From positions 41,973 through 105,972 of the IMG/VR virus record IMGVR_UViG_3300032053_000017: a DNA stretch of 64,000 bases, one strand, 5' to 3'. The translations under genes were made by a program, and so were the position numbers. This stretch comes from a virus. Positions 31,806 through 60,517 of the stretch are shown here, piece by piece; positions within the stretch are counted from its first letter, which is position 1, and each line of letters begins with the position of its first letter. The notes beneath the pieces were generated by a model, which worked only from the letters and a program-made list of their open reading frames with translations, had not been told where the DNA came from and made no database searches.

Positions 31806-34800
31806 ATGAGCAGAAGTTTCTACCGTATCGCGACCGTTGACGGTGAGGGTTCTGTCAGCCTCTTCAAGGACAGGTCTGGCAACCTCCAGATCCACACGCG
31901 CGGTGCGGTCTACGACCTCAAGGACGTCCTCCGTGGCAGCGTCTCCATAAACATGCTCGGCGCGCTGAACACGCTGGCTCGGGCTGGGCTGCTGCCAAGA
32001 CTCGCGACAGAGACGGTGGGTAAGGCTGTAGCACACATCTTGCAGGGCTCAAAGTTGACCAAGGCCGCGCGGCACTTCCTAGTTACACCTGATACCGTGC
32101 CGCACTACGAGCCCAACGCGGGGCCGCCCGCCAACAGACTGCCGATGCACTATGCTGAGAACTCCGACGGACGACTGGCATACCTCGTCGAGCGTCCAGA
32201 TGGTACGTTCGACGTCGAGACCCGTGATGAGCGCAAGCCGCTTCGAGATATTGTAGGCCTGCCTGAGATCCACGTCCACATCGACCTTGGTGCCGTCGTA
32301 GACGATATGGTCAAGATACGCGAGCAGGCCCGGGAGCAGGCACGACGGCTGCGCAAGGAGCAGAACTATTCCAGCCTCGCGACCGCCCCTGTACCCGCGG
32401 CTGACCAGGGGCGCAAGGTGCTCCAGGAGCCGGGGCAGCCATTGGTACGACGCCAGCGCAGGCCGCCCGGTGTACCGCTGGGTGGGGATGCACAGGCCGA
32501 GCAGCCGCTCTACATCCTCAGGACCGGTAACAACCCGCTGGGCAAGGCGGACGAGGAGCACATCTATCTGAAGCCGGGCGAGGAGCCACCTGACAACGAG
32601 TGGGTCCACGAGGGCGAGCGGGGCGGCCACTACTACATCCCCGGCCAGCGTGACCCGTCGGATAAGCCGAGCACTCCGAGCAAGCCTAGCCCGTTCAAGC
32701 GGCCGGAAGACGCCCAGAACCGGGAGTTCTTGGCGCTGATCAACCGGATCGTTGAGGGCGATATAAGCACGGGTCAGCTCAGGTACGCCACACAGAACAT
32801 GAGTGAGGGCGCGCTTGAAGACGCTATCTACACGCTTGGCGAGTACCAGGAGCAGCTGACAGCCACCGGCAGTGCGGGTCGGTACAGCGCTGCGCGCGAC
32901 ATCCTCGGGCAGGAGCTTAGTGAGCGGCGCAGGCACAAGCACGAGCAGCTCGTGCTGAGCGTCGGACTTGGTGATATGCCGCTGGGCAAGTTTGCTGACA
33001 TCATCAGCAGTTTTACCGATTTGGAGCTTGACAGCCTCAAGGGCTACGTGCTCCCGATGCAGCTGCAGATTATGGAGACGCGCAAGGCCAAGAAGCTGCT
33101 TAAGGACGCGCTCAGGAGTGTCAACTGGACGATCGGCTCGCGTGAACGGACCTACCTCCACGGCACGACCGAGGCGAACCTTAAGGCGATCTTAAAGGTT
33201 GGCCTGCTAACCAATAAGACAGCGTCCAACTTCGGCATCTCCAAGAAGGGGGTCGTCTATCTGAGCCCCTCGACCCCGGTGGGCAGGGAGCTGTCGCTTA
33301 CGGTCGGGGCTGCTGCTGCCATCATGCACAACCAGCGCAGGTTCGCGCTACTGAACGTCAAGACAGCTGCCTCGGACATCCAGACGGACCCTGACGCGGG
33401 CTTCGCGGGCGCTGTGCTCACCAGGAAGAATGTGCCGGCGCAGGCGGTAACGAGCTACGAGATCTACGATGTCAAGGACTTTGGGGAGCTCTACACGGAT
33501 GCGATGGCTCAGCGCGATAAGGCGCTTGCTGAGGGTAAGAAGGTCGGTGGCCTCGACTGGGTCAGAAACTTCGTCGACTCGTTCGAGGGGTACGTGCTGG
33601 ACCACGGTATGCCGAATCCGGTCCGTGAGGTCGATCTGAGCCGCAGGCACAAGGCAGCTGCGGGCGGCATGTTTGTCGCGCCGGCTACAGTCGACACTAT
33701 CAGGAGCCTGCACCAGGCGCTCGACAACATCGAGAAGCAGGGTTTCACCCACGAGCACGACGGCTACCCCAGGCACCCGATAGGCGTGAAGCACCACGAC
33801 GAGTACTTCCGCGACCGCGGTGAGACAGCCGATACAGCCAAGCCCTATGCGCAGCCTGAGGGGCCCTCGACAGGGGTGGCAGAGCCCCAGCAGGTCAGTG
33901 AGCACGCTGAGGTCGAGCTGACGCGCTGGTGGGAGGACCTGAACAGGAAGCGCCATCAGCACGGCGCTGAGCCGACAGACAATATGGTCATCTCGGCGAA
34001 CGACAAGGGTGAGGCCGGCGAGCTGGCACGACTGCTGTGGGACGAGGTCCACCCGCTCCCGGCGACGGAGGAGTTCGCGCCCGGCGAGGGCAGGGTCGGC
34101 CACTTCAAGGTCAGGACACGGCAGGTGGACACCCTGCGGAACGTCACGATCTTCGAGGAGGTCAAGGACCCGGGCAAGGGGCTGACACCGAAGCTGCGCG
34201 CGCGACTCGATGAGCGGGAGCGGCGACGACGTGTCGAGCAGGACAAGGTAGCACAGACACACGGACTGCAGCCCATGTTCACCCCGGACGGAAGGCACAG
34301 GCTTACTGATGGTAGGTCTATACCTCCGGAGGATTCTCGGGCACCAGAGGGAATTGGGGGGACGTCTGGCGTATCTGAGAAGAGCACCCAAAAACGGGAT
34401 ATCACCGGGGCGTCGCCCGAGGTGTTGAAGCACCCAGGCCACGATGACCAGAGCGTCCACGATCCACGGAGCAAGGCCTCGGAGGCTGGCAAGCGGGTAG
34501 CGATCCCCAAGGCTCTACGGGACGCCGTCTTGGGCGACGCGCCCATCTGTGCGTTCTGCGGCACGTCCAAGGGGCCATTCCACGCCGACCACATCGTGCC
34601 CGTCAAGGTGGGTGGCAAGAACTTGAAGATCAACCTGCAGCCGGCGTGCAGGGCGTGTAACCTAGCACGGCGTGCGAAGGACCCGTCGCAGAAGCTCGAC
34701 TGGATCAAGTACAGTCAGCGGCAGATGCGGGAGATCATGCAGCAGGTGCTCGCCAGGCCGCGTGTCAACCACATGCTGAAGATGTGGGGGGATACGCTCT

Positions 34801-37800
34801 ACCTGTCGGTGCCCAGCCCCGAGCTGGAGGCTATGCTGCGGAAGCACCCCGGACACGATGATCAGAGCGTCCACGGCAAGAAGGGCAGCGGCACGCCAAA
34901 GATGCCAGGCCCAGAGTGGAGCCCAGGTAGGGGCATGGCCTACCACGTCCTGCCAACACACGAGCTTGCGAGCATCAGACAGCGGGGCGTCAGGCCCGGC
35001 TCCCACAGCGAGGGGTACAAGCTGCCACGCGTGTTCGTGTTCACCAACCCGGACGAGGCCGAGTGGTACGCGGACATGCAGGCCGACGACGCTGAGAGCG
35101 AGGGCATCACAGCTCCCAATGGCGAGCGCATCAGGATGCAGGTTCTGCCGGTCGATATCACCGGCCTGCCGACGATGCACGACGATACGCTGCGGCCCAA
35201 CGATGAAGAGGAGACCACAGCACTGCAGGTGGCTTATGGCATCCCCTCGAGTCGCATCAGAAAGCACAACACGCCGCGCAGCCCGCACCGGCTCCACGAC
35301 CCCCGGGTCAGGGCCAAGGAGGAGACGCGCTTCAAGGAGCAGGCGCGACGTGAGCAGGAGGCCGCCGGCCAGGTCGAGAGGGTCGACGACGAGATGCACG
35401 CGAGCTTCAGGGCACTGGGCCTCAAGCGCACTACCAGGGTGCCGGTCGAGCGTGGCCCGTTGGACCGTAAGGCGTGGCGCGCGATCAGACACAACATCGA
35501 CGCCCACATCTCAGAGCACGCAGCGTACATGACACAGGACACACAGAAGATGACCAGGCGCGAGCTCAGCAGGCAGCTCGGCTTGTTCATCAGAACGGGC
35601 ATGGCCAAGGATGCTAGACTGCTGGATGCCTATATGGACCACGCGACCGACGCGCTCGCCTACCAGGAGCTGCACGCGTGGCGGCGCCAGCTCGGGGACC
35701 ATGGCATCAGGCACATCACCGAGGACCAGCGCCTGACGGACGAGATGCTGCGGGAGCTGGGCGGCACGGTCGGGCACGTGAGCAGCAGGGAACGCCTGCT
35801 GGCAGCCATCGCGCTGACGTATCACGACATCGGCTACACGGCCAAGCCCGCGCGTGAGACCTTCGCCGGCACAAAGCTGCACCAGGTCTACAGCGCTCAG
35901 TTTGTCAGACAGCAGCCCATCTTGCAGAAACTACTGGGCGATGATATGAATAGGGTCTGCGACTGGATCGAGACGCACCAGGACAGCGACATCGACTGGG
36001 CTGAGGATCCTGTAGGTTCGTCTATCAGACTGTCGGACAATTTGGCCTTGTTCGCCCGTGAGAAGCTGCCGGCGTTGTTCAGATATGTGCCGGGCGCGGT
36101 CGAGGAGCTGAAGGCGATGGCCATCGACCTGCAGAGTGGCAAGGCTGACCACGTCAAGCGTCGGAAGGCTAAGCTACGGAGCATGGTCGAGGGGGCACGT
36201 CTTGCGCCAGGCATGAAGCGCAACCTTATGAACGCGGTGGACGACATCTTCCAGCTTACACCGAAGTTCACGCTTGGGATGCTGGCTGGCCACACGCTGC
36301 AGCCCAAGTTCGATGGCCAGACGATGCACATCCCGATCCAGTACAGCGCGTTCGCTAAGACGCTCCAGGACCTGTTCCAGATGGGGCAGGAGCAGTTCAT
36401 CAAGCTGGGCGACTCGTACGGACTGAAGCCGGCGGATGTGGACAAGGGGGAGTTCACCTTCACAAACAAGCACGGCATCCCGGTGCTTCACTGCAAGGTG
36501 GTGGGTGCACCGAGCGGTGTGTTCAAGCACCTGCCGGACCAGCACGACCAGGCCGACCATGGAAGCGACGGGGAGGGCGAGAAGCCTAAGACGCCCTACC
36601 ACCGCTGGCTGCACAGGGACGAGCTTGACCAGGCCACCTTCGAGAAGCCGGGGTTCCCCGACATCAGGCGTGGCTACAAGTGTGACAGCGACGGCAGGGT
36701 CCAGGGCGCGCACACATTCTACCACGGCACAAGCGCCGAGAGCGCAGCGAAGATCCTGCACGAGGGGCTGCGGGACGAGAGCTGGCTCGCTGAAGAGCCG
36801 TCGGTCTCGACCCACTTCGCGCGGGTCCAAGCTAAGCACCACGGTGGGAAGAGGGACCGGGGTGTCCTGTTCGCGGTGCATGTCTCCTCGGGGGCAGCCC
36901 TGGACATGGACGCGGCCAACGAGGCCGGGATCGGCTTCAAGACGTTGGGCAATATCTCGCCGGACAACATCGAGGTGCTGGGCGCGGTCATATCGGTTGA
37001 GGGCGGCCGAGTGTATGTCGAGCTCAACGAGGAGCTCAACAACCAGCTCAGCAAGCACCTCCCCGGTGAGCACAGGCAGGAGGACCACGGCACGCCTGCA
37101 CCGCCTGACCCGCCGAAGCCGCTCGAGCTGCTGACGAACGATGAGTATCACAGGTGGATCAGGCCCTGGCTCCAGCAGGCGGAGGATGACGCCATGAAGG
37201 CGGCTGGAGCTACACAGGAAGGTTCGGACAAGTGGTATGAGATCCGCGACAAGTTCCGGCCTCTGGAGCGCGAGAACTATGAGAAGTGGCGCAAGGCCGT
37301 GGAGGGGCGCAAGCTTACACCGACACCTGGGGTGCCGCTGAAGCCGACGCCCAAGTACCGTGAGGCGATCCGCGCGTGGGCGACCGCTGAAGAGAAGAAG
37401 CACGGTGGTGTCATTGGGTCACCAGACGGTGTCGTCATCCTGAGCTCGCCCTACCGTGCGACCGACGAGACCGACGCGATGGCCGAGTACATGGAGAAAC
37501 GGTCGAGCAGGGAGTCGATGGTCCGAGCGCTATCATCGCAGACAAGCTGGAACATGGGCGGGGGCTGGGCCGAGTGGGCAGCGGCTGCCAAGATCGTAGG
37601 CCGGGAACTGCCGAAACAGTCTGGGGGGTTCTATCACAGGGATGAGCCGGAGCTTTCGGACGACGACCTCAAAGCGTATGAGGCGCGCGCGGAGTTTATC
37701 CAAGCCCGCATCCGCGAACGGTACGGCGACGAGATCATGGTCTTCCGTGGCCTCAAGGGCGCGTTCGCGCGCAAAGTCAAGGAGGCCGCTGTGAAGGTCG

Positions 37801-38093
37801 ACGAGCCCGGTGGCGGCTACCACTACGAGGCGGAGCTGCCTGTGCGTGAGCTCTCGAGCTGGACACCAAGCGCTAGGACGGCCGGCGACTTCGCCTACGG
37901 CTACAACCGACGGGGGCAGCAGAAGCACGGCAAGGGCTGTGTAGTCTCGATGCAGATGAAGACCGACGATGTCTTCAACTCGAACGAGGTGGGCGCGAAG
38001 AACGTCATCAGGTTTACAGATGATCACGACGAGCTGGTCATGCTGGGCAGGGAGCCCACAGTCACAGTGAAGATGGAGCGATGGGAAAACTAA
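31806..38093 (+). CDS. 2095-aa polyvalent effector polyprotein (ART-like x3, HNH, HD, R-S-E ART)
   Basis: YLHGTT..ILKVGL..VYLS; CAFC..DHIVPVKVGG..NLQPACRACN; YHV..IRQRGV..VFVF; DHGIRH..HDIGY..SDN; FYHGTS..ILHEGL; VFRGL..LSSWT..DELV. Confidence 0.8.
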   Translation: MSRSFYRIATVDGEGSVSLFKDRSGNLQIHTRGAVYDLKDVLRGSVSINMLGALNTLARAGLLPRLATETVGKAVAHILQGSKLTKAARHFLVTPDTVPHYEPNAGPPANRLPMHYAENSDGRLAYLVERPDGTFDVETRDERKPLRDIVGLPEIHVHIDLGAVVDDMVKIREQAREQARRLRKEQNYSSLATAPVPAADQGRKVLQEPGQPLVRRQRRPPGVPLGGDAQAEQPLYILRTGNNPLGKADEEHIYLKPGEEPPDNEWVHEGERGGHYYIPGQRDPSDKPSTPSKPSPFKRPEDAQNREFLALINRIVEGDISTGQLRYATQNMSEGALEDAIYTLGEYQEQLTATGSAGRYSAARDILGQELSERRRHKHEQLVLSVGLGDMPLGKFADIISSFTDLELDSLKGYVLPMQLQIMETRKAKKLLKDALRSVNWTIGSRERTYLHGTTEANLKAILKVGLLTNKTASNFGISKKGVVYLSPSTPVGRELSLTVGAAAAIMHNQRRFALLNVKTAASDIQTDPDAGFAGAVLTRKNVPAQAVTSYEIYDVKDFGELYTDAMAQRDKALAEGKKVGGLDWVRNFVDSFEGYVLDHGMPNPVREVDLSRRHKAAAGGMFVAPATVDTIRSLHQALDNIEKQGFTHEHDGYPRHPIGVKHHDEYFRDRGETADTAKPYAQPEGPSTGVAEPQQVSEHAEVELTRWWEDLNRKRHQHGAEPTDNMVISANDKGEAGELARLLWDEVHPLPATEEFAPGEGRVGHFKVRTRQVDTLRNVTIFEEVKDPGKGLTPKLRARLDERERRRRVEQDKVAQTHGLQPMFTPDGRHRLTDGRSIPPEDSRAPEGIGGTSGVSEKSTQKRDITGASPEVLKHPGHDDQSVHDPRSKASEAGKRVAIPKALRDAVLGDAPICAFCGTSKGPFHADHIVPVKVGGKNLKINLQPACRACNLARRAKDPSQKLDWIKYSQRQMREIMQQVLARPRVNHMLKMWGDTLYLSVPSPELEAMLRKHPGHDDQSVHGKKGSGTPKMPGPEWSPGRGMAYHVLPTHELASIRQRGVRPGSHSEGYKLPRVFVFTNPDEAEWYADMQADDAESEGITAPNGERIRMQVLPVDITGLPTMHDDTLRPNDEEETTALQVAYGIPSSRIRKHNTPRSPHRLHDPRVRAKEETRFKEQARREQEAAGQVERVDDEMHASFRALGLKRTTRVPVERGPLDRKAWRAIRHNIDAHISEHAAYMTQDTQKMTRRELSRQLGLFIRTGMAKDARLLDAYMDHATDALAYQELHAWRRQLGDHGIRHITEDQRLTDEMLRELGGTVGHVSSRERLLAAIALTYHDIGYTAKPARETFAGTKLHQVYSAQFVRQQPILQKLLGDDMNRVCDWIETHQDSDIDWAEDPVGSSIRLSDNLALFAREKLPALFRYVPGAVEELKAMAIDLQSGKADHVKRRKAKLRSMVEGARLAPGMKRNLMNAVDDIFQLTPKFTLGMLAGHTLQPKFDGQTMHIPIQYSAFAKTLQDLFQMGQEQFIKLGDSYGLKPADVDKGEFTFTNKHGIPVLHCKVVGAPSGVFKHLPDQHDQADHGSDGEGEKPKTPYHRWLHRDELDQATFEKPGFPDIRRGYKCDSDGRVQGAHTFYHGTSAESAAKILHEGLRDESWLAEEPSVSTHFARVQAKHHGGKRDRGVLFAVHVSSGAALDMDAANEAGIGFKTLGNISPDNIEVLGAVISVEGGRVYVELNEELNNQLSKHLPGEHRQEDHGTPAPPDPPKPLELLTNDEYHRWIRPWLQQAEDDAMKAAGATQEGSDKWYEIRDKFRPLERENYEKWRKAVEGRKLTPTPGVPLKPTPKYREAIRAWATAEEKKHGGVIGSPDGVVILSSPYRATDETDAMAEYMEKRSSRESMVRALSSQTSWNMGGGWAEWAAAAKIVGRELPKQSGGFYHRDEPELSDDDLKAYEARAEFIQARIRERYGDEIMVFRGLKGAFARKVKEAAVKVDEPGGGYHYEAELPVRELSSWTPSARTAGDFAYGYNRRGQQKHGKGCVVSMQMKTDDVFNSNEVGAKNVIRFTDDHDELVMLGREPTVTVKMERWEN

Positions 38094-40423
38094 GGGTCGA
38101 GGACGACGAGGGTCTGCAGGAGTGGGGGCGCTACCTCACCGGGCAGCGCGTCGAGAAACACCTCCCGGGTGAACACGACCAGGACACCCACGGCACCCGG
38201 CACGAGCGCAGCGCTGACCAGCAGAAGACGCTCAAGATGTTGCAGAGCTACATGAGCGCCATGGTGGAGATGCGCGGGGCGAAGAAGCCCAAGGGCTGGC
38301 GCTTCAACTCTGTTGAGGAGCTGCTGCTCAAGCACGGTCAGACGTTCTCCAACGACCCCTACACATCAGATGAGGAGGAGGTGATCCTCAGGTTGGCGGC
38401 CACACTTGGCCCATGCCACGAGAAGGAGTGCTACCTCACGGCCCTGCGCGGCGCGCTGGAAGCCGATATGACAAGCATGGAGATCCACTACGCCGAGGGT
38501 CTTGCTATGGCCAAGGGTCTGCCGCTCCCTATCAACCACGCGTTCTTGGTCCTCAACAACAAGCCAGTCGACCTAACGTGGCGACGCGACTACAGTGTTG
38601 GGCACGGTTACAGGTCAGCCAAGCGGCTGCTCGAGCGAGCGAAGGAGAACCTCGAGGACGACGTCTACATCGGCATCAAGATCCCGACTGACCATATCAG
38701 ACGGCAGGCGTTCGATACGGGCCAGGCCGCGCCGATCCTCGACGATTGGGAGCGTGGCTACCCGCTGCTGCAGCGCGGGATCCCCAAGAGCTGGGAGAAA
38801 CTGCAGAAGGCTCTGTCGCCGTTTACGCATGAGCACGACGAATACCCGCGGCACTCGATCAACAAGACTCATTATGACACCAATGATAATATCACCGACG
38901 TTGATAAGCACCTACCGGGCAAACATGACCAGGCCACCCACGCTGGCGTCGAGAGCGTCAAGCATGATCTAGACGAAGCCACGGACAAGGACCTCGAGGG
39001 GTGGCTCAAGTTTATTGGGCGCAGGGGAAGACAGAACGATAAGGACGCCAGCATCGACGAGGCGGTCTCGATAAGTCTGATGCAGAGCGCGCTCCGCGAG
39101 CACCCCGACAGGACCTGGGTACTGCGCGACCCAAGCGGTAAGGCTCAGGCATTCGCGGCGCTGTCGAAGCCTGATCCTAAGGGCTGGAGTGAGCTACAGT
39201 ACGGAGCAGCGCCCTGGCACACCGTAGCTGAGGGTGTACACGGCTACGGCCTGCAGGTGGTGCGAGAGGCAGTTCAGGCCGCCATAGACGGCAAGCGCTG
39301 CAAGGCTATCTGGGCTGAGCCTGTGAACGACCGCTCGTGGCATATCCTCGAGCAGGCGGGGTTCGAGGGTGGGCGTGAGGGGGAGCCGCCTGGTGGCTAC
39401 ATGGTGAGCATGAACCTGCGGCCGTTCCTGAGCAAGGCTGAGCCGATCAAGCACTTCACCCACGAGCACGAGGGCTGGCCGCGCCACCCTATCAATGTGA
39501 AGAACCATGCCAAGTACTTCACAAAGCATCCTGAGCTGCACGGGCCCTTCCCAAAGGTGCCCAAGCCGTCTCCGCCACGCGCGTCGTCGCCGTCGCTGTA
39601 CGCGCTCGCGGGCAAGACCCCACCAAGGGAGGAGATCGACGCCGAGCAGAGTTTTTCTGAGGCTGGCCTGCGCGGTGGCATCTGGCTGGAGCGCACGACC
39701 GTCGTCGAGTGCAAGCCTGGGATGCTTCCCGAGGTTGAGGGTCTGTCGGATGTACGGCTCATCCACAAGACCTTCACGGGGGAGTCTGTGACCGAGTACA
39801 CGGTGTACAAGTTGTTCGAGCTGCTCAGACCTGGCTTCTGTCCGACGGTCATGATAGACGAGAAGGGCGAGGGCCACACGATGCGGTGGGTGGACGACGC
39901 TGGCTTTGGCGGGAATGCTATAGTCCTGGAAAAGGATACCACGACCCGAAGCCACGGCTTTAGCATAGAACAGGCGGAGGACGCGGGCTTTATGCAGGTG
40001 GTCGACTGGCTGGCCGGAAACCCGGACAGACACACTGGCAATGTCGTCCTCGACGGCGACCGTCTCTGGCCGATCGACAATGGGCTCTGTAACCTCAGCT
40101 ACGGCCAATATCGTTTTAGTGTAAACTGGACCTGGACGTCGCGGCTGGAGCCTGGTGACGCGAAGTCGCGGCGGGCATTCAGAGACTCAGCTCTGCGTAC
40201 ACTCAACCAGGTAGCGGAGAACGCGGACAAGATCATTGAAGTTATAGCGACCAAGGGTGGGCTGCCGCAGCGTCAGGAGCCTGGTGCCTTTGCGCATGGG
40301 CCGGCCGTCAGGCCTAAGCCTAAGTTTGTTGTCTCCGCGGTCAAGGCTGCACGCAAGGAGCTGAGGGCGTGGTACAAGCAGGCGGAGGACAACGCTAACG
40401 AGAGGCGCAGGAGGATGGCATAA
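38081..40423 (+). CDS. Polyvalent protein: papain/transglutaminase-like + GNAT + HipA/PI3-4K-like kinase
   Basis: KECY..YAEG..HAF..VDLT; HGYGLQVV..EQAGFE; DWLAGNPDRHTGN..PIDNG. Confidence 0.75.
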   Translation: MGKLRVEDDEGLQEWGRYLTGQRVEKHLPGEHDQDTHGTRHERSADQQKTLKMLQSYMSAMVEMRGAKKPKGWRFNSVEELLLKHGQTFSNDPYTSDEEEVILRLAATLGPCHEKECYLTALRGALEADMTSMEIHYAEGLAMAKGLPLPINHAFLVLNNKPVDLTWRRDYSVGHGYRSAKRLLERAKENLEDDVYIGIKIPTDHIRRQAFDTGQAAPILDDWERGYPLLQRGIPKSWEKLQKALSPFTHEHDEYPRHSINKTHYDTNDNITDVDKHLPGKHDQATHAGVESVKHDLDEATDKDLEGWLKFIGRRGRQNDKDASIDEAVSISLMQSALREHPDRTWVLRDPSGKAQAFAALSKPDPKGWSELQYGAAPWHTVAEGVHGYGLQVVREAVQAAIDGKRCKAIWAEPVNDRSWHILEQAGFEGGREGEPPGGYMVSMNLRPFLSKAEPIKHFTHEHEGWPRHPINVKNHAKYFTKHPELHGPFPKVPKPSPPRASSPSLYALAGKTPPREEIDAEQSFSEAGLRGGIWLERTTVVECKPGMLPEVEGLSDVRLIHKTFTGESVTEYTVYKLFELLRPGFCPTVMIDEKGEGHTMRWVDDAGFGGNAIVLEKDTTTRSHGFSIEQAEDAGFMQVVDWLAGNPDRHTGNVVLDGDRLWPIDNGLCNLSYGQYRFSVNWTWTSRLEPGDAKSRRAFRDSALRTLNQVAENADKIIEVIATKGGLPQRQEPGAFAHGPAVRPKPKFVVSAVKAARKELRAWYKQAEDNANERRRRMA

Positions 40424-40424
40424 G

Positions 40425-41495
40425 ATGAGGGCAGTAGTCTGGGTCATGAGCGATGGTAAGCTGGAGCTGGCCGCGGAGGTGCTCGAGGACGGACAGGTGA
40501 ACGGCCCGTTCGCCGAGTCGCTCAGCCGCTGGATCCAGAGCAGCGGACTCGAGGGCGAGAAGATGCTGCGCGTCCTGGCCAAGCGGTGGACCAACGGTTA
40601 TATGGCCGTCGAGCTCCGCGGCGGCAAGGTCGAGAAGACCAGCACAGCCACAGCGATCAGGACGTACATCACGTCGGGCGAGGACGCGCCCGAGGGCGTG
40701 AGCGTCAAGCGCGGACCCCGCGGCGGCCGGTACTACGAAGGCAAGGCGCCTGAACCGAAGGAGCGGTTCGAGTTCAGTCCGAACGAACCACCAGATACCA
40801 AGGCGAAGCCGTACTCGCCGACCTTGGGCGAGTTAATCAACAACCCCTCGTGGGACGACCTGCCATGGAGAAAAGTCTCGTCGTACAAGGAGCTCTTCGA
40901 CCAGTACCATCTGAACATGCGCGCGAAGGCCGGCACAGCTGCAGCGATCGCGATGGATATCTGGAAGGATATACCTCTTGAGCACTTTATAGGCGTGCAT
41001 GAGGTTCACAATGAGCGCGCAACGCCAGAGAGGCTGGCCTCTTACGATCGGAACAAGATGAGTATAGCCCTCGCGTTCGACGGTTCACCGTGCGCGAAGA
41101 ACGTCAAACGACAGGGTGCCGTACACGAGGTAGGCCACGCCGTGTTTGACGGACTGTGGCGTCCACCAGGCCTCGACAAGAAGTCCGTTGATGCCGCAGC
41201 GACAGAACTGCGCAAACGGGTGCTGGCGTCCTACGCTGGGGCAATCAGGGAGGCCGGCGCTGATGTCATGCTGACTGTACTTACGGGCATCATGTTGGTG
41301 GGGACTCCTGAAGAATTCTTCAAACGCGTTCAAAAGGCGCGCGCGGTTACACCATACGCCCTGTCAGACGTCAACGAATGGTTCGCTGAGAACTACTCAT
41401 GGTATGTGCTGCACTCGAAGGGCTTGAAGAAAACGAACCCCGAGATGTATGATATAATGGTTACAGTATTTGGGGGAAAGGAATACAAGCGATGA
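40425..41495 (+). CDS. Zincin metallopeptidase (lethal-factor-like) with YITSGE..GPRGGRYY tag
   Basis: HEVGH..YALSDVNEWFAE. Confidence 0.75.
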   Translation: MRAVVWVMSDGKLELAAEVLEDGQVNGPFAESLSRWIQSSGLEGEKMLRVLAKRWTNGYMAVELRGGKVEKTSTATAIRTYITSGEDAPEGVSVKRGPRGGRYYEGKAPEPKERFEFSPNEPPDTKAKPYSPTLGELINNPSWDDLPWRKVSSYKELFDQYHLNMRAKAGTAAAIAMDIWKDIPLEHFIGVHEVHNERATPERLASYDRNKMSIALAFDGSPCAKNVKRQGAVHEVGHAVFDGLWRPPGLDKKSVDAAATELRKRVLASYAGAIREAGADVMLTVLTGIMLVGTPEEFFKRVQKARAVTPYALSDVNEWFAENYSWYVLHSKGLKKTNPEMYDIMVTVFGGKEYKR

Positions 41496-41926
41496 TCACC
41501 ATCAAGGACCCCCGTGGCAGAGTGGTGGGCAGCGCCGACGATAAGCGACTGACGGTCACCGACCCGCGCCTACGGCGCCACCTCGAGGCTGTGCTGCGTC
41601 ATGGCATCCCTATGGGGCCCGACGCGGGCGTCAAGGGCCGGCCAGGTGTCGTGCTGCTGTTGGACTACCTCAGCCGGGCAGGCTACACCATAGAGGTCAG
41701 CGGGGGACTTAAGAAGGCGCCTGGTATCTCAGCGAGCGGCAGCGAGAGCCCCGACCCAGGACATGTTATCAGCGGCGACAGCCCAGGACACCTCATCGGA
41801 CCGGTCCGCAGGGTACGGCGTATAAACAAGGACATCGGCGGGGTGGGAGCACCAACGACAGGCGCGATGGTGAGCACGCCGACAGCAGGCGGTGGTAGAC
41901 GCAGGAGAAGACCCCCAGCTGTGTAA
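41492..41926 (+). CDS. Hypothetical protein with LKKA/INKD sites
   Basis: Coupled ORF. Confidence 0.55.
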   Translation: MITIKDPRGRVVGSADDKRLTVTDPRLRRHLEAVLRHGIPMGPDAGVKGRPGVVLLLDYLSRAGYTIEVSGGLKKAPGISASGSESPDPGHVISGDSPGHLIGPVRRVRRINKDIGGVGAPTTGAMVSTPTAGGGRRRRRPPAV

Positions 41927-41944
41927 GTGATAGATACACGGAGG

Positions 41945-41978
41945 AGGTTTCCGCCGCGCCCACAAGAGGATATGATAG
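41945..41978 (+). promoter_or_regulatory. Phage promoter motif copy 4 (AGGTTTC-N19-TATGAT-AG)
   Basis: Exact motif and spacing, intergenic. Confidence 0.75.
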
Positions 41979-41982
41979 CGCT

Positions 41983-42369
41983 ATGAAGAGATGCTACAGG
42001 TGTGGGGAGTGGGTGGACCCAGAGAGCGACGGCCCCTGTCATGACGGCAAGTACTACTGCTTCGAGTGTATACTCGGCAACAAGTGCGGCTGCAGCATAG
42101 ACATCAAGAGACTACGCGGGCTCCTGGGCAGGATCTGGAACGCCGTCCGCGGTTTGCGCGTTTAGGGGGTTAAGCTCTTGAATGACACGGACGATCACAT
42201 CGACACAGACCGCGTGGACATCGATGCCCGCCGCGTCATCGTTAATACGGGCTGGACCATCGAGATGGCCAAGTGGAATACGATAGGCACGCTGGGCGGC
42301 TTCTTCGTTGGCGTGGCGTCGCTAGTGCTGTCCGCTATCGCGATCGTGATAGTGCTGACGCAGCGCTGA
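41983..42369 (+). CDS. Two small ORFs: Cys-rich Zn finger (41983-42165) and single-TM protein (42178-42369)
   Basis: CxxC..C..CxxC; C-terminal TM helix. Confidence 0.5.
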
Positions 42370-42379
42370 GGAGATAGAT

Positions 42380-44170
42380 ATGCCCTTCGCAGGATATGAT
42401 AATTTCGCTGACTGTGTGTCCCGCAACAGGGACAAGAACAACCCCGACGCGTACTGCGGTTCGATCAAGCACAAGGTGGAGGACAAGTCCATGAATGAGG
42501 TACTTGACCAGGGTGGGATGGCATCGACCCTCCGTCGGAAGCTCGCAAAGGCTGCGACATTCGCATTTGACCTGGCGACTGCTATCTTCAATGCGGGTCC
42601 ACCGCCGAGGGGCAAACGCAAGCCGGGCGACAGCGAGTACGAGAGGCCGTACGGGCCGGGTGTTGGCAGGCGTGGCAAGGAGCCAAGCACGCCAGCGGAC
42701 GAGGGCAACCTCGCCGGCAAACGTGAGGCCGCGGGACGCCTGACAGGCGACGAGGGTAAGGGTCGAGCGGGCCAGAACCAGAGCCGTGCTCGCACCTATC
42801 TGAAGCCAGGCGAGAGTCCGCCCCACGGCGTCGCAATCCGGCAGGGGGAGCGGGGTGGCCGCTACTACGAGGGCGGGCCGGCGGGTAAGCCTGGACCAGC
42901 ATACCAGCCTCGGGGTGCGAAGCCACAGCGGTCCGAGCGCGAGCCGTATGAGATGCCTGCTGGACAAGGTGTCCCAGACTTTGAGGGCACAGAGGCAGAT
43001 GAGCCGCCGAGGGGGGTCCCGGACTATGATCCTGACCGTGGACCGAGCTACAACGTACCAGGTAAGGGCGCGGCCGAGCGGACTCCCTACTGGGGACCAG
43101 ACGATGAGGGCAGTGAGGCTGACGAGCCGTCGCGACAGGAGACCTGGCCGTTCGAGGAGGACCAGGAAGGTAGCGAGGCCGATGAGCCCCCGCGGTCCGA
43201 ACAGGGCGGTAGCAACCTCCAGCACGTAGTTGACCAAGTAACAGATCACTTTGGCCCCGAAGGTCTCTATCGGATGCGCGTGAGAGATATAGCCACTGAG
43301 ATCCAGCGTCGTGATCCTGGTATCCCCAACGAGCGCGCCGCAATGGCCGCAAAGAAGATACACCGAAGCGCTCTGGAGGAACTGCGCTATGCTGGGATGC
43401 GGGGCATGGGTCAACCGTCTGGGAGTCCAGAACAGCACAAGATGCGCAAGGCTATCAGCACGGGAAGCGTCGCCGCGCTTTCACTTGAGGCTGACATCGT
43501 GCTTAAGGGTGGTGGCCGCACCTATCTGAAGCCAGGCGAGAAGGCTCCGGCAGGTCAGCACGAGCAACAGGGCGCGCGTGGTGGCCGGTATTACGAGGGC
43601 CCGCGCGGCACAAGTCCTGAGACCCAAGCCGATGAGAACTGGGCACGGGGTAAGAGACCTGGCGCAGGTTCCGCTGGATTTGGCCGGCCAATGGACGGGG
43701 GCGAGGAGCCGACAAAGCCGCCTACTCGTGCAGGAAGTCCCGAGACCCAAGCGGACGAGGACTGGGCACGGGGTAAGCGACCCGAGGGCTTTGGTAAGCC
43801 AAAGGGAGATGTGAAGCCTAAGCCGCAGCAGAGTTTCTCAGCGCGTCTGAAGGACCAGGCAAAGGCTGTCTATGCACAGTTGAAGGGCGGTGACTATCAT
43901 CACTGGCGCGGGCAGGAGGATGAGCTGGCGCAGGACATAGTTGACGGGATGTTTCCAGATGAGGAGCCCGGTGATACTCTTGACGATCAGCAGTGGGACG
44001 CAGCAGCCCATATAGCATACCGTATGGCTCAAAAGCTTATCAGGGGCGACACGCCAAAACGACAACCTCGCAAGCCCAAGTCGCACGCAGCCCGTAGAGG
44101 TGACGCGCTACCCCCGTCTAGCGGGCCGCTTCGACCGGGCGATAGAATCTACCCGCGAGACTACCCTTAG
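42380..44170 (+). CDS. Low-complexity head-associated protein with internal repeats
   Basis: YLKPGE..GGRYYEG x2, EG(S/T)EADEP x3, SPETQADExWARGKRP x2; directly upstream of the protease. Confidence 0.65.
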   Translation: MPFAGYDNFADCVSRNRDKNNPDAYCGSIKHKVEDKSMNEVLDQGGMASTLRRKLAKAATFAFDLATAIFNAGPPPRGKRKPGDSEYERPYGPGVGRRGKEPSTPADEGNLAGKREAAGRLTGDEGKGRAGQNQSRARTYLKPGESPPHGVAIRQGERGGRYYEGGPAGKPGPAYQPRGAKPQRSEREPYEMPAGQGVPDFEGTEADEPPRGVPDYDPDRGPSYNVPGKGAAERTPYWGPDDEGSEADEPSRQETWPFEEDQEGSEADEPPRSEQGGSNLQHVVDQVTDHFGPEGLYRMRVRDIATEIQRRDPGIPNERAAMAAKKIHRSALEELRYAGMRGMGQPSGSPEQHKMRKAISTGSVAALSLEADIVLKGGGRTYLKPGEKAPAGQHEQQGARGGRYYEGPRGTSPETQADENWARGKRPGAGSAGFGRPMDGGEEPTKPPTRAGSPETQADEDWARGKRPEGFGKPKGDVKPKPQQSFSARLKDQAKAVYAQLKGGDYHHWRGQEDELAQDIVDGMFPDEEPGDTLDDQQWDAAAHIAYRMAQKLIRGDTPKRQPRKPKSHAARRGDALPPSSGPLRPGDRIYPRDYP

Positions 44171-44178
44171 AGGATAGT

Positions 44179-47100
44179 ATGAAGATCAGCAAGTCGGTCG
44201 AGCAGGACTGGTCCAGTGTCCTCCAGGATGCTGTCCCCCAGGGGGTGGCGGCCGAGTACGGGCGTATCCAGATCCTGTACAAGCAGGGGGGCCTGGAGGA
44301 GGACTATGAACTGGTCGTAGCCGGCTATGCCTCCCCACAGATCATCGACCGCGAGAAACACCTGATCACCAAGGAGGCCATGCAGAACGACCTCCCGCGG
44401 TTCCTGGCGCACCCCCACTACCGGAACGCAATGATCGTGCACTCCAACATCCAGGTTGGTGAGGTACTGCCGCGCTGGACGAACCCCAAGACCAACGAGG
44501 AGTTCGAGACCAAGGTCGACGACATCGGCCTGTTCGTAGTGGTCAAGCTGCGGACCGACAAGTACCGTCCCGAGATCTGTGAGAAGGTCGAGAAGGATAT
44601 CCAGGCCGGTAAGCTCTCGGCGTTCAGCATCTCAGGCGATGCGCCGTTCGACAGCAGGCGGCACGTCTGCCACAACGGCACGTGTTTCTGGATTATCGAC
44701 AAGATCATCTTCTATGAGATCACCATCTGCGAGCAGGGCGTGAACCAGGACGCCAAGTTCGCCATCCTGAGCAAGATGGCCCACTGCACCGACGGCGTCT
44801 GCGAACTGCCGCTGCCGAGCTATGTGACCACCGGCGCTATTCAGAACGCCTTGGACAAGCACATGGAGCCGGGCATGAAGCCGCACCAACACGGGCCAGC
44901 GACCCACCAGCCGTTCAGCGAGCCGGCCGAGGGTGAAACACTGCAGCCCGAGCCAGAGCGGTGGCCCAAGCGGGGCGCCAGGCCACGTGATGTCTTTGGA
45001 CTTCCCAAGCGCGGGTATGGTCGCGAGATCGGCAAGGCCGGTGGGGGTGGCGCGATAACGCCGGAGACCCCGATGCAGGATACCGAGGCGGGCAAGGACC
45101 CGACCAAGCCTGACATCGGCGAGAAGGCGGGCGGTGCCGCGACAGGACACGGCAGTATCCCGACTGGGTCAACCGAGCAGAAGGGTGAGGTCACGGTCGC
45201 TGAAGACTTCGCGCAGCGTATGTGGCAGGGCATGGGCCGGCCGTACAGTTTCGACCAGTTCAAGGTGGGACTGGGCGTCGAGTGGGAGCATGCTGATATC
45301 CTGGGCGGCGACTGGATGAAGGTCGCAGCGGTCGTGCTGGACCACCTCAAGGAGGACGAGCAGTACTACACCAAGCTGGCGCAGGTCGAGAAGGGACACG
45401 GTGTGCTCGGCAGGGCTGTGGTCAAGACTGTTGCGCGGAAGTCCGGATTCGCAGGCGGGGGCAATACAGCTGATGTTGGCAGCGGCTGGGCCGAGGAGGT
45501 TCACGACGTCGATACCGCGGGCAAGCCGGGCGGCATGCAGACTGACCGGACGTTCGATGAGGCCGAGGAGGAGAAGCGCGAACCATACGAGGCTCCAGGA
45601 CTTGTCGGCAGTCCCACCTCTGGGCCACTTGAGACTAAGTGCAAGCACGGTATCGTGAAGGGTGGCCAGACATGGGGGCCGCCAGACTTCGAGTGGGCCG
45701 GCCAGGAAGATGATGAGAAGGCGGAGAAGCACGCCACGAACGATACACACAAGCATGGCAGTGACGGCGTGCTTCCGACGATCCCGCAGATCAAGCGGCC
45801 AAAGCCCGTCAAGCAGGCTGGCGTAACATACAAGGCTGCGATCGACCCGAGTAAGACTACGCAATTCAGCCCACAGTACGCGCGCGATGATGCTGCTGGT
45901 GGCGAGGAGTCTGAGGAGTATTATCTGAACAAGGGTGAGCTATCACCAGACCTGATGACCGGCAGAGAGTCCGATAGGTTCTACCAGCGCTGTCCACTCT
46001 GTGCGACACAGAGCATCATCGAGCGGGCGCTGGATAACAGGACGCTCTACAGCCGCATGTCCGGGGAGTTCCGGGGCGTGCTGAGGCACTGCCTCATGGT
46101 GCTCCAGCAGGGCACGGGCGGGCTCGATTATATCCCCGGCAAGGGCTGGCTCGCTCTGGCTGATGACCACGCGTACACCGGTTACATGCGCTCGGGCTAC
46201 GGGGTGCCGCTGGCGCTGGCCGTAGCTACCATCGGTGTAAGCGCGTTCGACATCGGCGACGCAGCGCTGGTTAGGGCAGCGACCGAGACGGCCAACAGAC
46301 TGCTTGACCAGCACCCGCTCAGCAAGGGCGAGTATGAGCAGTTACTCGCGCGGGTGACCGGGTGGATGGGCAAGAATTTGGGCCTCGTGATCGCCAGGGC
46401 TAAGACCCTCTCGAAGGGTTACTCTGTCGGGTGGCTCGGTGACGCGCAGCGAACACTCCAGAGCGTACAGGGCTCGCTGGCGAACGTCGACCGCAAGGCA
46501 CTGAGTGATGATTTGAATGTGGCGCTTGGGAGCATCAGCGATGACGTGGAGCACCTGGTGGCCGCGCTTGGCCTGACCGAGCAGATGAAGGGCCAGGTGA
46601 AGGGCGTGGAGCCGGCCGCTCTGGACGTAGTGCGTGAGGTTGCCAAGGATACCGAGCACGACGTCGATGCAGCCAACGAGGCGCTGGAGGCGATCGATCC
46701 CGAGCGGATCGAGCAGCGCGGCGATAGCGAGAAGAATGAGCTAGATAACCCCGATCAGACGATCCACCCTGACGAGGTCGCTGTCATGACAGGAGCGCCC
46801 CCGGGTGTACCGACCGGCAACGCAAATGCGAGCGTAATCCACCGTGGCATGGATACCATGGTGGAGCGCCTGCTGGGCTGGCTGCCGCCTGAGAATACGC
46901 TCCGTCAGCTTTACAGTCGTATCTTCGGACAGGAGGAGCCCATCGAGGGTCCGGACGATATCGAGACGCTCATCATCGAGTGGGGACGGGCGAACCCGAT
47001 GCCAGACGTGGGCACGGAACAGATCACTGAGGATACAGTACCGTTGGCTAAGGCTATGATGCCACCGGGGCTTGGCACAACTTCGAAGACGGATGAGAAC

Positions 47101-47811
47101 TTTGACCTTTGGGGCGCGCCAAACCGTAGCGAACAGAACAGAGGCCCGGGCCGACGTCAGATGGGACCGACGACCGAAGAGTTTGACACTCTCGACCAGG
47201 GTCAGCACCCGGCCTATGACTTCAGCAGGCCGACGCAACCTGAGGGTCTGACGAAGGACGCGGGCGCGCCGACCGCCGGGATGCCTGAGGCGGACGTTGC
47301 TGTAAACCGTGGGGTAGCGACCGACGAGGAGCCCGAGGATCCACTGGCTGTAGCAGCGTTCGGTATGGAGCCTGACGAGCCTAGACAGCCTGACCCTGAC
47401 TCAACGGCGGGGCACGTCGAGGAGAAGGACACGGGTGCACGGAACGATCGTTTTGTGCCAGACCCAAGCAGGGTAAGCAACTTGAACAAGGACCCTGCAA
47501 CGGATGAGCCGGTACACGTCAAGGGGGCTGGAGCGGGCAGACGTGACCAGTTCAGTGATCAGGGGCCGCCCGGTGTAGTAAACCACCGCCAGCCAATCCA
47601 AGAGCGGGAGTATGACAATAGAGGAGCATTGGTGCCCCAACTCAATATGGGGGTTGAGGATGCCAAGGCCCTGTTCAAACTGCACGCATCGTTGTGGTCG
47701 CGGTATGTCAGCGACAAGCACTTCGGCCTCGCTGTTGTAGAGCTGGACGACGATGGCGAGCCTGTCCAGATCGTTGATGTCGCGCGGAGGCAGAAACGCC
47801 GTGATAAGTAA
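44179..47811 (+). CDS. Prohead protease (HK97-type) with ~1000-aa extension including a DUF5661-like domain
   Basis: VAGYAS..IDRE..HSNIQVG..GLFVV..GKLSAFSISG..EITICEQGVN; GLGVEWEH..LDHLKEDEQYYTKL. Confidence 0.85.
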   Translation: MKISKSVEQDWSSVLQDAVPQGVAAEYGRIQILYKQGGLEEDYELVVAGYASPQIIDREKHLITKEAMQNDLPRFLAHPHYRNAMIVHSNIQVGEVLPRWTNPKTNEEFETKVDDIGLFVVVKLRTDKYRPEICEKVEKDIQAGKLSAFSISGDAPFDSRRHVCHNGTCFWIIDKIIFYEITICEQGVNQDAKFAILSKMAHCTDGVCELPLPSYVTTGAIQNALDKHMEPGMKPHQHGPATHQPFSEPAEGETLQPEPERWPKRGARPRDVFGLPKRGYGREIGKAGGGGAITPETPMQDTEAGKDPTKPDIGEKAGGAATGHGSIPTGSTEQKGEVTVAEDFAQRMWQGMGRPYSFDQFKVGLGVEWEHADILGGDWMKVAAVVLDHLKEDEQYYTKLAQVEKGHGVLGRAVVKTVARKSGFAGGGNTADVGSGWAEEVHDVDTAGKPGGMQTDRTFDEAEEEKREPYEAPGLVGSPTSGPLETKCKHGIVKGGQTWGPPDFEWAGQEDDEKAEKHATNDTHKHGSDGVLPTIPQIKRPKPVKQAGVTYKAAIDPSKTTQFSPQYARDDAAGGEESEEYYLNKGELSPDLMTGRESDRFYQRCPLCATQSIIERALDNRTLYSRMSGEFRGVLRHCLMVLQQGTGGLDYIPGKGWLALADDHAYTGYMRSGYGVPLALAVATIGVSAFDIGDAALVRAATETANRLLDQHPLSKGEYEQLLARVTGWMGKNLGLVIARAKTLSKGYSVGWLGDAQRTLQSVQGSLANVDRKALSDDLNVALGSISDDVEHLVAALGLTEQMKGQVKGVEPAALDVVREVAKDTEHDVDAANEALEAIDPERIEQRGDSEKNELDNPDQTIHPDEVAVMTGAPPGVPTGNANASVIHRGMDTMVERLLGWLPPENTLRQLYSRIFGQEEPIEGPDDIETLIIEWGRANPMPDVGTEQITEDTVPLAKAMMPPGLGTTSKTDENFDLWGAPNRSEQNRGPGRRQMGPTTEEFDTLDQGQHPAYDFSRPTQPEGLTKDAGAPTAGMPEADVAVNRGVATDEEPEDPLAVAAFGMEPDEPRQPDPDSTAGHVEEKDTGARNDRFVPDPSRVSNLNKDPATDEPVHVKGAGAGRRDQFSDQGPPGVVNHRQPIQEREYDNRGALVPQLNMGVEDAKALFKLHASLWSRYVSDKHFGLAVVELDDDGEPVQIVDVARRQKRRDK

Positions 47812-48472
47812 ACCGACCAAGAGTGAACGCAGGGAGCAGCGGCGCAAGACTGCCCGCAAGATGGGCGTGAGCGGAAGCGGCGTTAAGCGCGTATACCCAG
47901 ACGCTGTACAGAAGCGCGCTAAGGAGACGAAGGAGTAGCCATGATAATTCAGCAGAGGTCAGTGATGACGTGGGATGAGCTACGCACTCAGCTGGAGCTA
48001 CTCTTGATCGAGGACGTACACGCAGATGCGTACGGTCAACCGAACACAAGTGAGCTACGCAAGGCTACACGACACTCCACAGATATCATGCAACTGTTTG
48101 AAACGTACCTCGCAGGAAGGAGAAGTTAGTTTGAACGACACAACGGTACCGGTCAAGCTGACAGAGCAGGATGCGTGGGCGATCCAAAGCTCGGTCAAGC
48201 ATGACATGACCGTTCGACTTGATAGTAAGGAGGGGCGGGCTGCAGGACTGACGCTCCGGGAGAAGGTAAACAGTCTTATCGTCGAGTACGCTGAAAAACG
48301 AAATGGCGACCCGCGCCCGGAGGGCGTGGACATCGCGCTGACAGCCGAGGAGCTCTGGTTGATCGACAAGCAGCTACTTCTCACATATGCTGGGGCGCGT
48401 GAATTGTTGGTTCGCGTCTTTAAGGCCCTCATCAAGCTTGAGACAGCCTCGTTGTGGGACGGGGAAAGTTGA
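47801..48472 (+). CDS. Three small hypothetical ORFs (47801-47938 basic, 47941-48129, 48131-48472)
   Basis: Coupled ORFs. Confidence 0.5.
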
Positions 48473-48473
48473 T

Positions 48474-59644: not shown

Positions 59645-60517
59645 ATGAAGAAGGGCAGGAGCCTCATCCGTCTATCTGACAACCCCTACGGCGGCGACGA
59701 AGACCCGTTGGACCCAACTGGCGGTGAGCTAGGTGGAGACGACGAGGAGGAAGAGGCGCCGTTTGGAGAGGAAGCTCCAGAAGAGGACGAGATGAGCGGC
59801 ATGTACTCGATGCGAAAGGGGCGGAGGGTCAGCGGTCCCCGTGTCAAGCTGTCGCTAGAGAAGCTGGACAACCGCATGACCGGCATCGAGAGGGCTGTGG
59901 TAGATCTGGCCGAGACCGTATCGTCTTTGGCTCAGTCTAACTCTGTCGTGGGTAAGGCGGTTCTTGCCCGACTCCGCAAGGACGACGAGAAGGACGAGGA
60001 AGACGAGAAGGAAGACAAGGCCAGTCTCCGCAAGGACTATGCGTCGGACACCGGTATCGGTGATACCAAGGATGTCGGCGACGACAGGACTTCTGAAGAG
60101 GAGACCAAGAACGAGGTAGGCATCACCGAGGGTGACCTGACCAAGAACCGACGGCTCGCCAAGGACGACGCTGCAAGCAGCTTCGGCGAGAAGGACGACG
60201 ACATGCCCGGCAACAAGCCGGCCGGTATTGACGAGAAGGACAAGAGCCCCGACGACTACCTGCTTCAGGGTGACGCAAGTGACGGACCGGGCCCAACGGT
60301 GAGCGCGGCGCTCAAGGCTGACCTTGCGAAGGCAGCTGCTGCGGTGTACGCTCGACACGGAATCGTTATGAAGGCCTCGGGACCGCGTCCGGGTACGGGC
60401 GGCAGCGAGCCAACAACCGATGTGGATGATCTCTTCGCCAGGGCGCGCAACATGAGCTTCCGAGAGCTCAACAGGAAGCGCGTTGAGGTCGGAGATCTTC
60501 CTGACGGACTGATCTAG
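59645..60517 (+). CDS. Capsid scaffolding protein
   Basis: Acidic, coiled-coil, many [LIVM]xK sites, immediately before the MCP. Confidence 0.7.
   Translation: MKKGRSLIRLSDNPYGGDEDPLDPTGGELGGDDEEEEAPFGEEAPEEDEMSGMYSMRKGRRVSGPRVKLSLEKLDNRMTGIERAVVDLAETVSSLAQSNSVVGKAVLARLRKDDEKDEEDEKEDKASLRKDYASDTGIGDTKDVGDDRTSEEETKNEVGITEGDLTKNRRLAKDDAASSFGEKDDDMPGNKPAGIDEKDKSPDDYLLQGDASDGPGPTVSAALKADLAKAAAAVYARHGIVMKASGPRPGTGGSEPTTDVDDLFARARNMSFRELNRKRVEVGDLPDGLI

Follow-up and report, generated by a model that had tools for sequence, protein, structure and literature searches.

The stretch of DNA considered here (the window) comprises 64,000 nucleotides of the IMG/VR virus record IMGVR_UViG_3300032053_000017 (positions 41,973 to 105,972 of that record), and it raises the question of why the same few tags recur between enzymes that are otherwise unrelated. 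In a block at 31806-47811, chains of about a dozen enzymes lie in giant proteins that adjoin the gene of a capsid protease, and three recurring tags stand directly, or a few residues, behind a hydrophobic-x-Lys (h-x-K) sequence in a flexible linker. The best overall explanation, to which we assign a probability of roughly 55%, is that the block encodes packaged polyvalent cargo that is cut at the tag sites by an HK97-family protease. A first-pass annotation, made from the letters alone, had proposed such a packaged and processed set of enzymes, an interpretation that is partly supported by the results below.

A six-frame regular-expression scan of the whole window for the three tags placed every match inside the open reading frames (ORFs) of the block, on the + strand and in frame, and nowhere else in the window, which confirms the places that the first-pass annotation had given them. 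The copies are as follows, with a slash marking the position behind the Lys:

34422..34460, + strand: tag1 copy 1, VLK/HPGHDDQSVH
34836..34874, + strand: tag1 copy 2, LRK/HPGHDDQSVH, 91% identical to copy 1 as DNA
35256..35300, + strand: degenerate tag1, IRK/HNTPRSPHRLHD
36519..36560, + strand: tag1 copy 3, VFK/HLPDQHDQADH
37047..37088, + strand: tag1 copy 4, LSK/HLPGEHRQEDH
38150..38191, + strand: tag1 copy 5, VEK/HLPGEHDQDTH
38900..38941, + strand: tag1 copy 6, VDK/HLPGKHDQATH
33744..33782, + strand: tag2 copy 1, FTHEHDGYPRHPI
38822..38860, + strand: tag2 copy 2, FTHEHDEYPRHSI
39455..39493, + strand: tag2 copy 3, FTHEHEGWPRHPI
32565..32636, + strand: tag3 copy 1
40665..40736, + strand: tag3 copy 2
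42797..42868, + strand: tag3 copy 3
43523..43594, + strand: tag3 copy 4

Tag1, [LIV]xK-H(L)PGxHDQxxH, has six good copies and one degenerate copy, and all seven stand directly behind V/L/I-x-K. Each of the three copies of tag2, FTHEHxx[YW]PRH, has an h-x-K 2-6 residues upstream (IEK, LQK, LSK), with additional h-x-K sites just downstream, while tag3, Y[LI]xxGE..P..G.RGG.YY, has [LV]xK 3-9 residues before its first Tyr in three of four copies. The copies of a tag are 61-77% identical as DNA, the exception being the 91% tag1 pair around one module of the first polyprotein (module E). This low identity indicates that selection acts on the peptide, and in view of it an origin of the tags as recent DNA repeats was dropped. 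In AlphaFold models tag3 forms a three-stranded mini-sheet (core predicted local distance difference test scores of 84-87), and the h-x-K lies in a low-confidence, strand-free linker immediately ahead of it. As modeled, then, tag3 is a three-stranded beta mini-domain of ~30 residues; tag1, by its sequence, is a His-rich peptide of 12 residues. A fold search with a 46-residue tag3 model returned a single chain at Z 2.5, too low to be meaningful; no model in Pfam, PHROG or NCBIfam covers the tags, and a literature string search for the tag peptides gave no match.

The block is filled by six co-directional ORFs:

31806..38093, + strand: cargo polyprotein 1 (2095 aa), a modular chain in the order N-domain A, tag3, module B (ADP-ribosyltransferase (ART)-like lead), tag2, module C, tag1, HNH, tag1, module E, degenerate tag1, HD, tag1, module G, tag1, module H
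38081..40423, + strand: cargo polyprotein 2 (780 aa), a modular chain in the order tag1, transglutaminase/papain-like, tag2, tag1, GNAT-like, tag2, PI3/PI4-kinase-like
40425..41495, + strand: 356-aa protein with a small N-domain, a disordered linker with V-E-K, tag3, a disordered linker and a zincin
41492..41926, + strand: 144-aa basic protein, kept in the closest relative (L002) at 51% identity
42380..44170, + strand: 596-aa protein of low complexity; it has tag3 twice, and its N-terminal motif, which contains Cys, is shared with the N-terminus of the HVTV-1 protease
44179..47811, + strand: 1210-aa protein (P0005) with an HK97-family prohead protease domain followed by a long extension with DUF5661

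The enzyme names that had been read from the letters fared unequally, though none is contradicted. The HNH and HD modules, which lie in the same ORF, exceed the Pfam thresholds and are solid. The kinase-like module is supported by homology (phmmer 3e-31) to a protein that matches PI3_PI4_kinase at 1.2e-16, and the zincin of the 356-aa protein by a helical domain with an HEVGH (HExxH) motif, by Pfam matches to ATLF/M90 at 0.007-0.01 and by weak Foldseek matches (E~0.1), the top ones being to lethal factor and PPEP (Pro-Pro endopeptidases). The GNAT call is weak (E 0.0026), and the transglutaminase/papain-like module is a structural lead, with a template modeling (TM) score of 0.66 to an McjB-like protein. 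The four ART-like calls (modules B, E, G and H) are likewise leads only: B has language-model leads at 0.88, G matches Pfam PARP at only E 0.094, and E and H have no domain match. None of these four modules has a significant sequence match in the PDB, and pairwise BLASTP among B, E and G found no significant similarity. Close relatives of the 780-aa protein were absent from IMG/VR, and one was found in a set of 5.8 billion proteins.

Two side observations concern the 596-aa protein. Its start, NFADCVSRNRDKNNPDAYCGSI (42380-42490), resembles the N-terminus of the HVTV-1 protease gp119, ECVDSVLDDNPDYSESRAYAICW (L001), a small Cys-containing element. It also has a second repeat peptide, SPETQADE[ND]WARGKRP, which occurs twice (43612-43659 and 43735-43782) with 90% DNA identity.

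The block probably does end in a prohead protease gene, as the first-pass annotation had it. Its domain spans residues ~40-200 of P0005 (+ strand; His88 at 44440-44442, Ser150 at 44626-44628) and matches the PHROG head maturation protease at 1.6e-9, with lesser matches to TIGR01543 (6.4e-6; 26.4 bits, cut-off 59) and PF04586 (18.7 bits, cut-off 21). An hhalign comparison with HK97 gp4 gave a probability of 80.6% (E 1.3e-5). His88 and Ser150 are invariant in five relatives, and Ser150 aligns with the Ser of the HK97 gp4 sequence 'GMSVGF', which we take to be the catalytic Ser. Right behind the catalytic domain, the protein has a degenerate tag1-like sequence of its own, LDK/HMEPGMKPHQHG (aa 225-239). 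Its C-terminal extension contains a DUF5661 (aa 357-405; 45247-45393), a domain that seems to be part of the same head-internal set, because it is found in 5 of 55 tag3-bearing proteins and in the protease fusion of L002.

A cut after Lys is suggested by two comparisons at the sequence level. HK97 gp5 reads TFNK/SLGSD at its known maturation cut, the mature N-terminus being Ser104, and the h-x-K/small site before the tags has the same pattern as this FNK/S. Furthermore, six divergent capsid proteins were compared (from the window, L005, L009, L010, L011 and HVTV-1), and Lys50 of the window's capsid protein (LLQK/D, codon 60678-60680) is invariant among them, with a hydrophobic P3 residue. The contexts across the lineage are LLQK/D, QILK/A, IIQK/A, FLAK/A and GMSK/A, and the Lys lies ~10 residues ahead of the conserved N-arm, where trimming is expected. 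Lys50 thus marks a candidate site of maturation cleavage that shares the form of those ahead of the tags. By analogy with the HK97 gp5 site, together with the h-x-K of the lineage's capsid proteins, the window's protease is predicted to cut both capsid and internal proteins after Lys.

The tags are widely conserved. A tag3 profile built from 27 copies (the window and ten IMG/VR loci) and searched against 1.84 billion representatives matched 908 protein clusters at E<=1e-3, 133 of them at <=1e-10, and a single protein can have as many as six matched stretches. A recount with a core-only profile compared 273 internal copies with 679 other Y[LIV] sites of these proteins, which served as controls. 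A Lys stands four residues before the tag3 Tyr in 191/273 internal copies (70%) vs. 57/679 control sites (8%), and L/I/V/M/F-x-K lies ahead of tag3 in 154/273 vs. 9/679. The full motif is [LIV]-x-K-[AGS]-[RK]-[VI]-Y-[LVI]..GE..P.G....G.RGG.YY; copies at a protein's own N-terminus mostly start with M-x-[RK]-V-Y and lack the h-x-K. For tag1, a degenerate DNA pattern for KHLPGxHDQxxH found 64 IMG/VR stretches, the richest locus having seven copies, and the pattern without the Lys at least 80. The residue before 90 unique HLPGxHDQxxHG copies is K in 61, R in 14 (K/R 83%), A in 6, E in 4 and F in 3, and P3 is V, I or L in 44/90. Enrichment of the tags behind h-x-K, as the first-pass annotation would have it, is therefore borne out for tag1 and tag3, and both recur in related and distant viruses, whereas tag2 in its strict form was found in IMG/VR in the closest relative only. 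Two scans of prokaryote genomes found just one contig of a candidate phyla radiation (CPR) metagenome-assembled genome (MAG) and one Bacteroidales contig, and the tags are thus essentially absent from sequenced cells. An Ala-type tag1, LVA/HLPGKHDQSSHG, is present in L083, L086, L098, L106 and L108, which look G+C-rich, and likewise in P0011 (MuF and kinase-like).

Among cultured viruses, tag3 was detected in Druskaviridae only, the family of the haloarchaeal siphoviruses HVTV-1, HCTV-1 and HCTV-5, which also have the nearest head genes to those of the window. In HVTV-1 it is present in gp113, gp115 and gp116, between portal and protease, behind I-A-K, M-E-K and L-D-K. A tblastn search with a single 46-aa tag3 found no match in GenBank phages, and the same comparison with a five-copy halophile tag3 protein gave Druskaviridae matches only. 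As a side observation, HVTV-1 gp115 ('zeta toxin'; L001, 14171-18112) has, in addition to an N-terminal tag3, its own repeat, WVSDPTEQAPNRWT.T.TGEHRYQETKP, in two copies, one directly behind V-L-K and the other with I-L-K nine residues upstream; the layout looks like a halophile version of the tag-plus-site arrangement.

The company that the tags keep is that of head genes. Nine of the ten tag3 loci have portal, MuF, protease or capsid genes as neighbors. For instance, the portal protein of L006 (2429-7986) is extended at its C-terminus by sequence with two copies of tag3, and the gene after it encodes tag3, an ADP-ribosyl exotoxin, tag3 and a SAM lyase (T3-type anti-restriction family), while L002, L003 and L011 have fusions of the prohead protease to sequence with tag3. 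Because the C-termini of portals and the extensions of proteases are inside the capsid, the tags are placed in the head interior. One further locus (L009:3547-6177) encodes an ATP-dependent DNA ligase with a Hint/intein insertion and tag3 at its end, a possible packaged ligase because it is located between MuF and the prohead protease.

The enzymes behind the tags vary and are shuffled between viruses, as the first-pass annotation had anticipated. In a Pfam census of 55 tag3 proteins and 66 tag1 ORFs, the former yielded topoisomerase IB (6), DUF5661 (5), ADPrib_exo_Tox (5), GNAT (3), SAM lyase (3), DRAT (3), PI3_PI4 kinase (2), S78 protease (2), portal (1) and ART-PolyVal (1). The latter yielded Phage_Mu_F (13), ADPrib_exo_Tox (7), DUF3626 (6), portal (5), zeta toxin (3), HNH (3) and one each of ART-PolyVal, ddrB-ParB, Tpt1, PARP and M90. 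The HD module stands behind degenerate tag1 in the window and in P0009, and behind tag3 in P0048 and P0053. The kinase module has tag2 in the window, tag2 and tag3 in P0010 and L002, and tag3 twice in P0044. P0009, a close homolog of the 2095-aa protein, starts at tag3 and has no 240-aa N-domain. Module E, which lies between tag1 copy 2 and the degenerate copy, is an insertion/deletion: it is missing from P0009 exactly between two LRK/H junctions. The closest relative has a protease that is 81% identical, yet its order is tag3-HNH-tag3-moduleB-tag2-...-tag1-...-tag2-tag3-kinase.

Multi-enzyme chains that are packed in the capsid, processed and injected have been proposed as polyvalent proteins (Iyer, Burroughs, Anand, de Souza, Aravind 2017, PMC5512222). 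As in that model, unrelated conflict enzymes (ART, GNAT, kinase, HNH, zincin) share one polypeptide, their genes accompany portal-terminase head genes, and the tagged relatives match its ART-PolyVal and ddrB-ParB families, fused to MuF or portal (PMC5512222). In the window, two disparate activities lie in one polypeptide with HNH and HD, the GNAT, kinase-like and transglutaminase-like modules being more weakly supported. The protease is the last gene of the block, tail-fiber genes flank the block and the genome also has portal, MuF and capsid genes, so the chains are encoded with virion genes. The HEVGH module of the 356-aa protein, with its weak profile and Foldseek matches, provides a zincin-like companion domain. 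Thus the block in all likelihood encodes phage-type polyvalent cargo proteins, that is, unrelated enzymes chained together and made with the head genes. By the same analogy, packaging of these polyproteins in the capsid and delivery with the DNA are predicted. The model differs in having zincins as the processing enzyme, with assemblin-like peptidases rare and C-terminal (PMC5512222). A text search of that paper found no conserved inter-domain tags or Lys sites, and none of its LPD families matches the tags.

Other systems resemble the window in part. In T4, a targeting peptide precedes the cut and is removed, the gp21-family protease cuts after Glu (L-x-E), and the cargo consists of separate small proteins. 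The giant myoviruses phiKZ and SPN3US also use a T4-type protease that cuts after Glu. Here, on the other hand, the tag lies behind the site and would be kept, Lys stands at P1, the protease belongs to the HK97 family and the enzymes are chained in polyproteins. Since the tags follow the site, P1 is Lys/Arg and the protease is HK97-family, they are not capsid-targeting sequences in the T4 sense. The T4 proteins IPI-III and Alt, with gp21, nevertheless offer a parallel, in that enzymes including an ART are loaded in the prohead, trimmed and injected with the DNA (PMC5512222, introduction, and established knowledge), and the window system may function like that of T4 without being a member. In phiKZ and SPN3US, a single prohead protease cleaves many head-internal proteins at a short consensus site before they are ejected into the host (PMC10052503, PMC7411985); no shared tag behind the site is known to have been described there. 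In phage P1, the Dar proteins (DarA, DarB, Hdf) place large anti-restriction enzymes in the head, and the N-terminus of DarA is removed by the P1 prohead protease; unlike here, loading is via the adaptor proteins DarA/Hdf on the capsid wall, with no repeated tags and no polyprotein cutting (PMC12810830). MuF polymorphic toxins (Jamet et al., 2017, PMC5576092) join a head-protein domain to a variable C-terminal toxin or enzyme, as do the 13/66 tag1 ORFs with MuF. The window polyproteins have no match to Phage_Mu_F, MuF being a separate gene at 3771-4649, and because no MuF is present on the chains they are not MuF toxins; the text of PMC5576092 does not mention linkers, cleavage or processing. 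The general idea of packed, processed and injected multi-enzyme proteins is therefore already published, and the tag grammar alone appears undescribed, as the first-pass annotation had supposed: we found no description of kept tags behind the site, of a Lys-type HK97 site, or of polyprotein units exchanged at tags.

According to the explanation favored here, the polyproteins would be built into the prohead, and the HK97-family protease from the end of the block would cut after the Lys of h-x-K, as the HK97 protease does after F-N-K. Each freed enzyme would keep its tag at the new N-terminus, and the enzymes would then exit the capsid with the DNA and act on the host. Cutting of the polyproteins by the prohead protease at h-x-K is, in our estimate, slightly better than an even bet. 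The retained tag may serve in addressing, in retention on DNA or the capsid wall, in primed-side recognition by the protease, or, for the His-rich tags, in metal binding; of these roles, that of an addressing element is put forward tentatively, with the odds somewhat against it.

Several observations weigh against this explanation. The Lys could belong to the tag itself instead of to a cut site, as N-terminal tag1 copies keep it (MLSK/H), and ~7% of tag1 copies have Ala and 4% Glu before the His. The tag3 match set was gathered with the upstream columns in the profile, a bias in the counts of Lys and h-x-K ahead of tag3 that the core-only recount lessens and cannot remove. Co-occurrence with the protease clade, which the first-pass annotation had expected, is partial: a prohead protease lies within 6 kb at just 5/10 tag3 loci (the window's clade at 3), and an HK97-type protease turned up in just two of five tag1 genomes (2/4 of the complete ones), with six profiles finding no prohead protease in the complete genomes G001 and G002. 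The polyproteins also contain possible cutters of their own, a zincin and transglutaminase/cysteine-protease-like folds, and a zincin has been proposed as the enzyme that processes polyvalent proteins (PMC5512222). Lastly, the head module is scattered, with the cargo block 27 kb from portal/MuF and 12 kb from the capsid gene.

These observations can be turned into rival explanations. The tags might mark sites that are cut by the polyproteins' own peptidases (zincin, transglutaminase/papain-like), in the capsid or after injection, with the prohead protease uninvolved. The HEVGH zincin lies inside the block behind tag3, an McjB-like cysteine-protease fold is a lead for module I, other tagged relatives have zincins too (by motif in P0006 and P0007, by M90 at 1.6e-4 in P0156), the zincin has been named the processing hub of polyvalent proteins (PMC5512222), and the two complete tag1 genomes without a detectable prohead protease agree with it. 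We nonetheless regard this as unlikely: the h-x-K/small site fits the HK97 protease cut and the candidate capsid cut of the lineage, Lys at P1 is not predicted by the known specificity of lethal-factor/PPEP-type enzymes, and tags are present in proteins fused to the prohead protease itself. Pfam zincins were found in just 1/55 tag3 proteins and 1/66 tag1 ORFs, at a low sensitivity. Similarly improbable is that the polyproteins stay uncut at the tags, which would be adaptor, spacer, metal- or nucleic-acid-binding elements with the Lys as part of the motif, the chains acting whole like the N4 virion RNA polymerase, which is cited as packaged unprocessed (PMC5512222). Tag1 and tag2 each have three His and an acidic residue, tag3 is modeled as a folded mini-domain followed by Gly/Arg-rich stretches, and the Lys retained in N-terminal tag1 copies would suit a motif residue. 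Most tag3 copies at true N-termini, however, lack the h-x-K, which is therefore not needed for the fold; the spacing from h-x-K to tag3 ranges from 1 to 9 residues with both elements kept, and the identical h-x-K form is present at the place where trimming is expected in the lineage's capsid proteins. That these are ordinary intracellular phage enzymes, never packaged and near head genes by an accident of genome arrangement, would be in line with the scattered head module and with the tail-fiber genes flanking the block. It is very improbable, since in other viruses the same tags are built into the C-terminal extensions of portals and into fusions with MuF or the protease, all of which belong to the head interior, and since 9/10 tag3 loci are in head modules.

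The window is the right 64 kb of one viral contig of 105,972 bp. The left arm encodes PolA fused to UDG, a DnaB-like helicase, a DnaG-type primase, RecA and an M23 peptidase. With these bacterial-type replication genes and the M23 peptidoglycan peptidase, the virus is a bacteriophage. An archaeal host was considered because the head genes are nearest to those of haloarchaeal viruses, but was dropped in view of the same genes. Identity to the haloarchaeal siphovirus proteins is 30% for the protease (HVTV-1), 26% for the portal and 22% for the capsid protein. The virion genes of the window lie in four segments (1802-4649, portal/MuF; 28124-31805, tail-fiber; 50079-53363, tail-fiber; 59645-61934, scaffold/capsid), so that tail-fiber genes, some of them collagen-like, stand on both sides of the cargo block. 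The head genes among them are:

1802-3787, + strand: portal, head module
3771-4649, + strand: MuF-like head protein, a gene separate from the polyproteins
59645..60517, + strand: acidic scaffold-like protein of 290 aa with [LIVM]xK at eight internal places; its gene precedes that of the capsid protein
60531..61934, + strand: major capsid protein of the HK97 fold family, 22% identical to HVTV-1 gp120

Directly downstream of the protease gene, an ORF at 48387-49094 is like a DUF559/MTES_1575-type endonuclease. The left arm also contains a myo-inositol-1-phosphate synthase-like gene and a C5 cytosine methylase (genome 29229-30308 and 33252-34343; L016:9229-10308 and 13252-14343).

Tentatively, and with some doubt, the tag plus h-x-K may be a portable cargo grammar of bacterial and archaeal tailed viruses with HK97-type proteases, by which an enzyme behind a tag would be loaded and released separately, and the tag kept as a docking or retention element, a role that would be comparable to that of encapsulin cargo-loading peptides. 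If so, two short peptides would flag capsid-loaded, injected enzymes from sequence alone. The two tags together cover about a thousand protein clusters, which come from uncultured bacterial viruses and from cultured haloarchaeal viruses, and they would provide a way to list early host-takeover and anti-defense effectors without other annotation. The grammar would also explain the rapid and free swapping of injected modules between close relatives, and it would suggest an easy way to bring foreign proteins into phage heads. An open point of the polyvalent-protein model, namely which protease frees the units and where, would become testable, as cultivable carriers of tag3 exist in HVTV-1 and the HCTV viruses.

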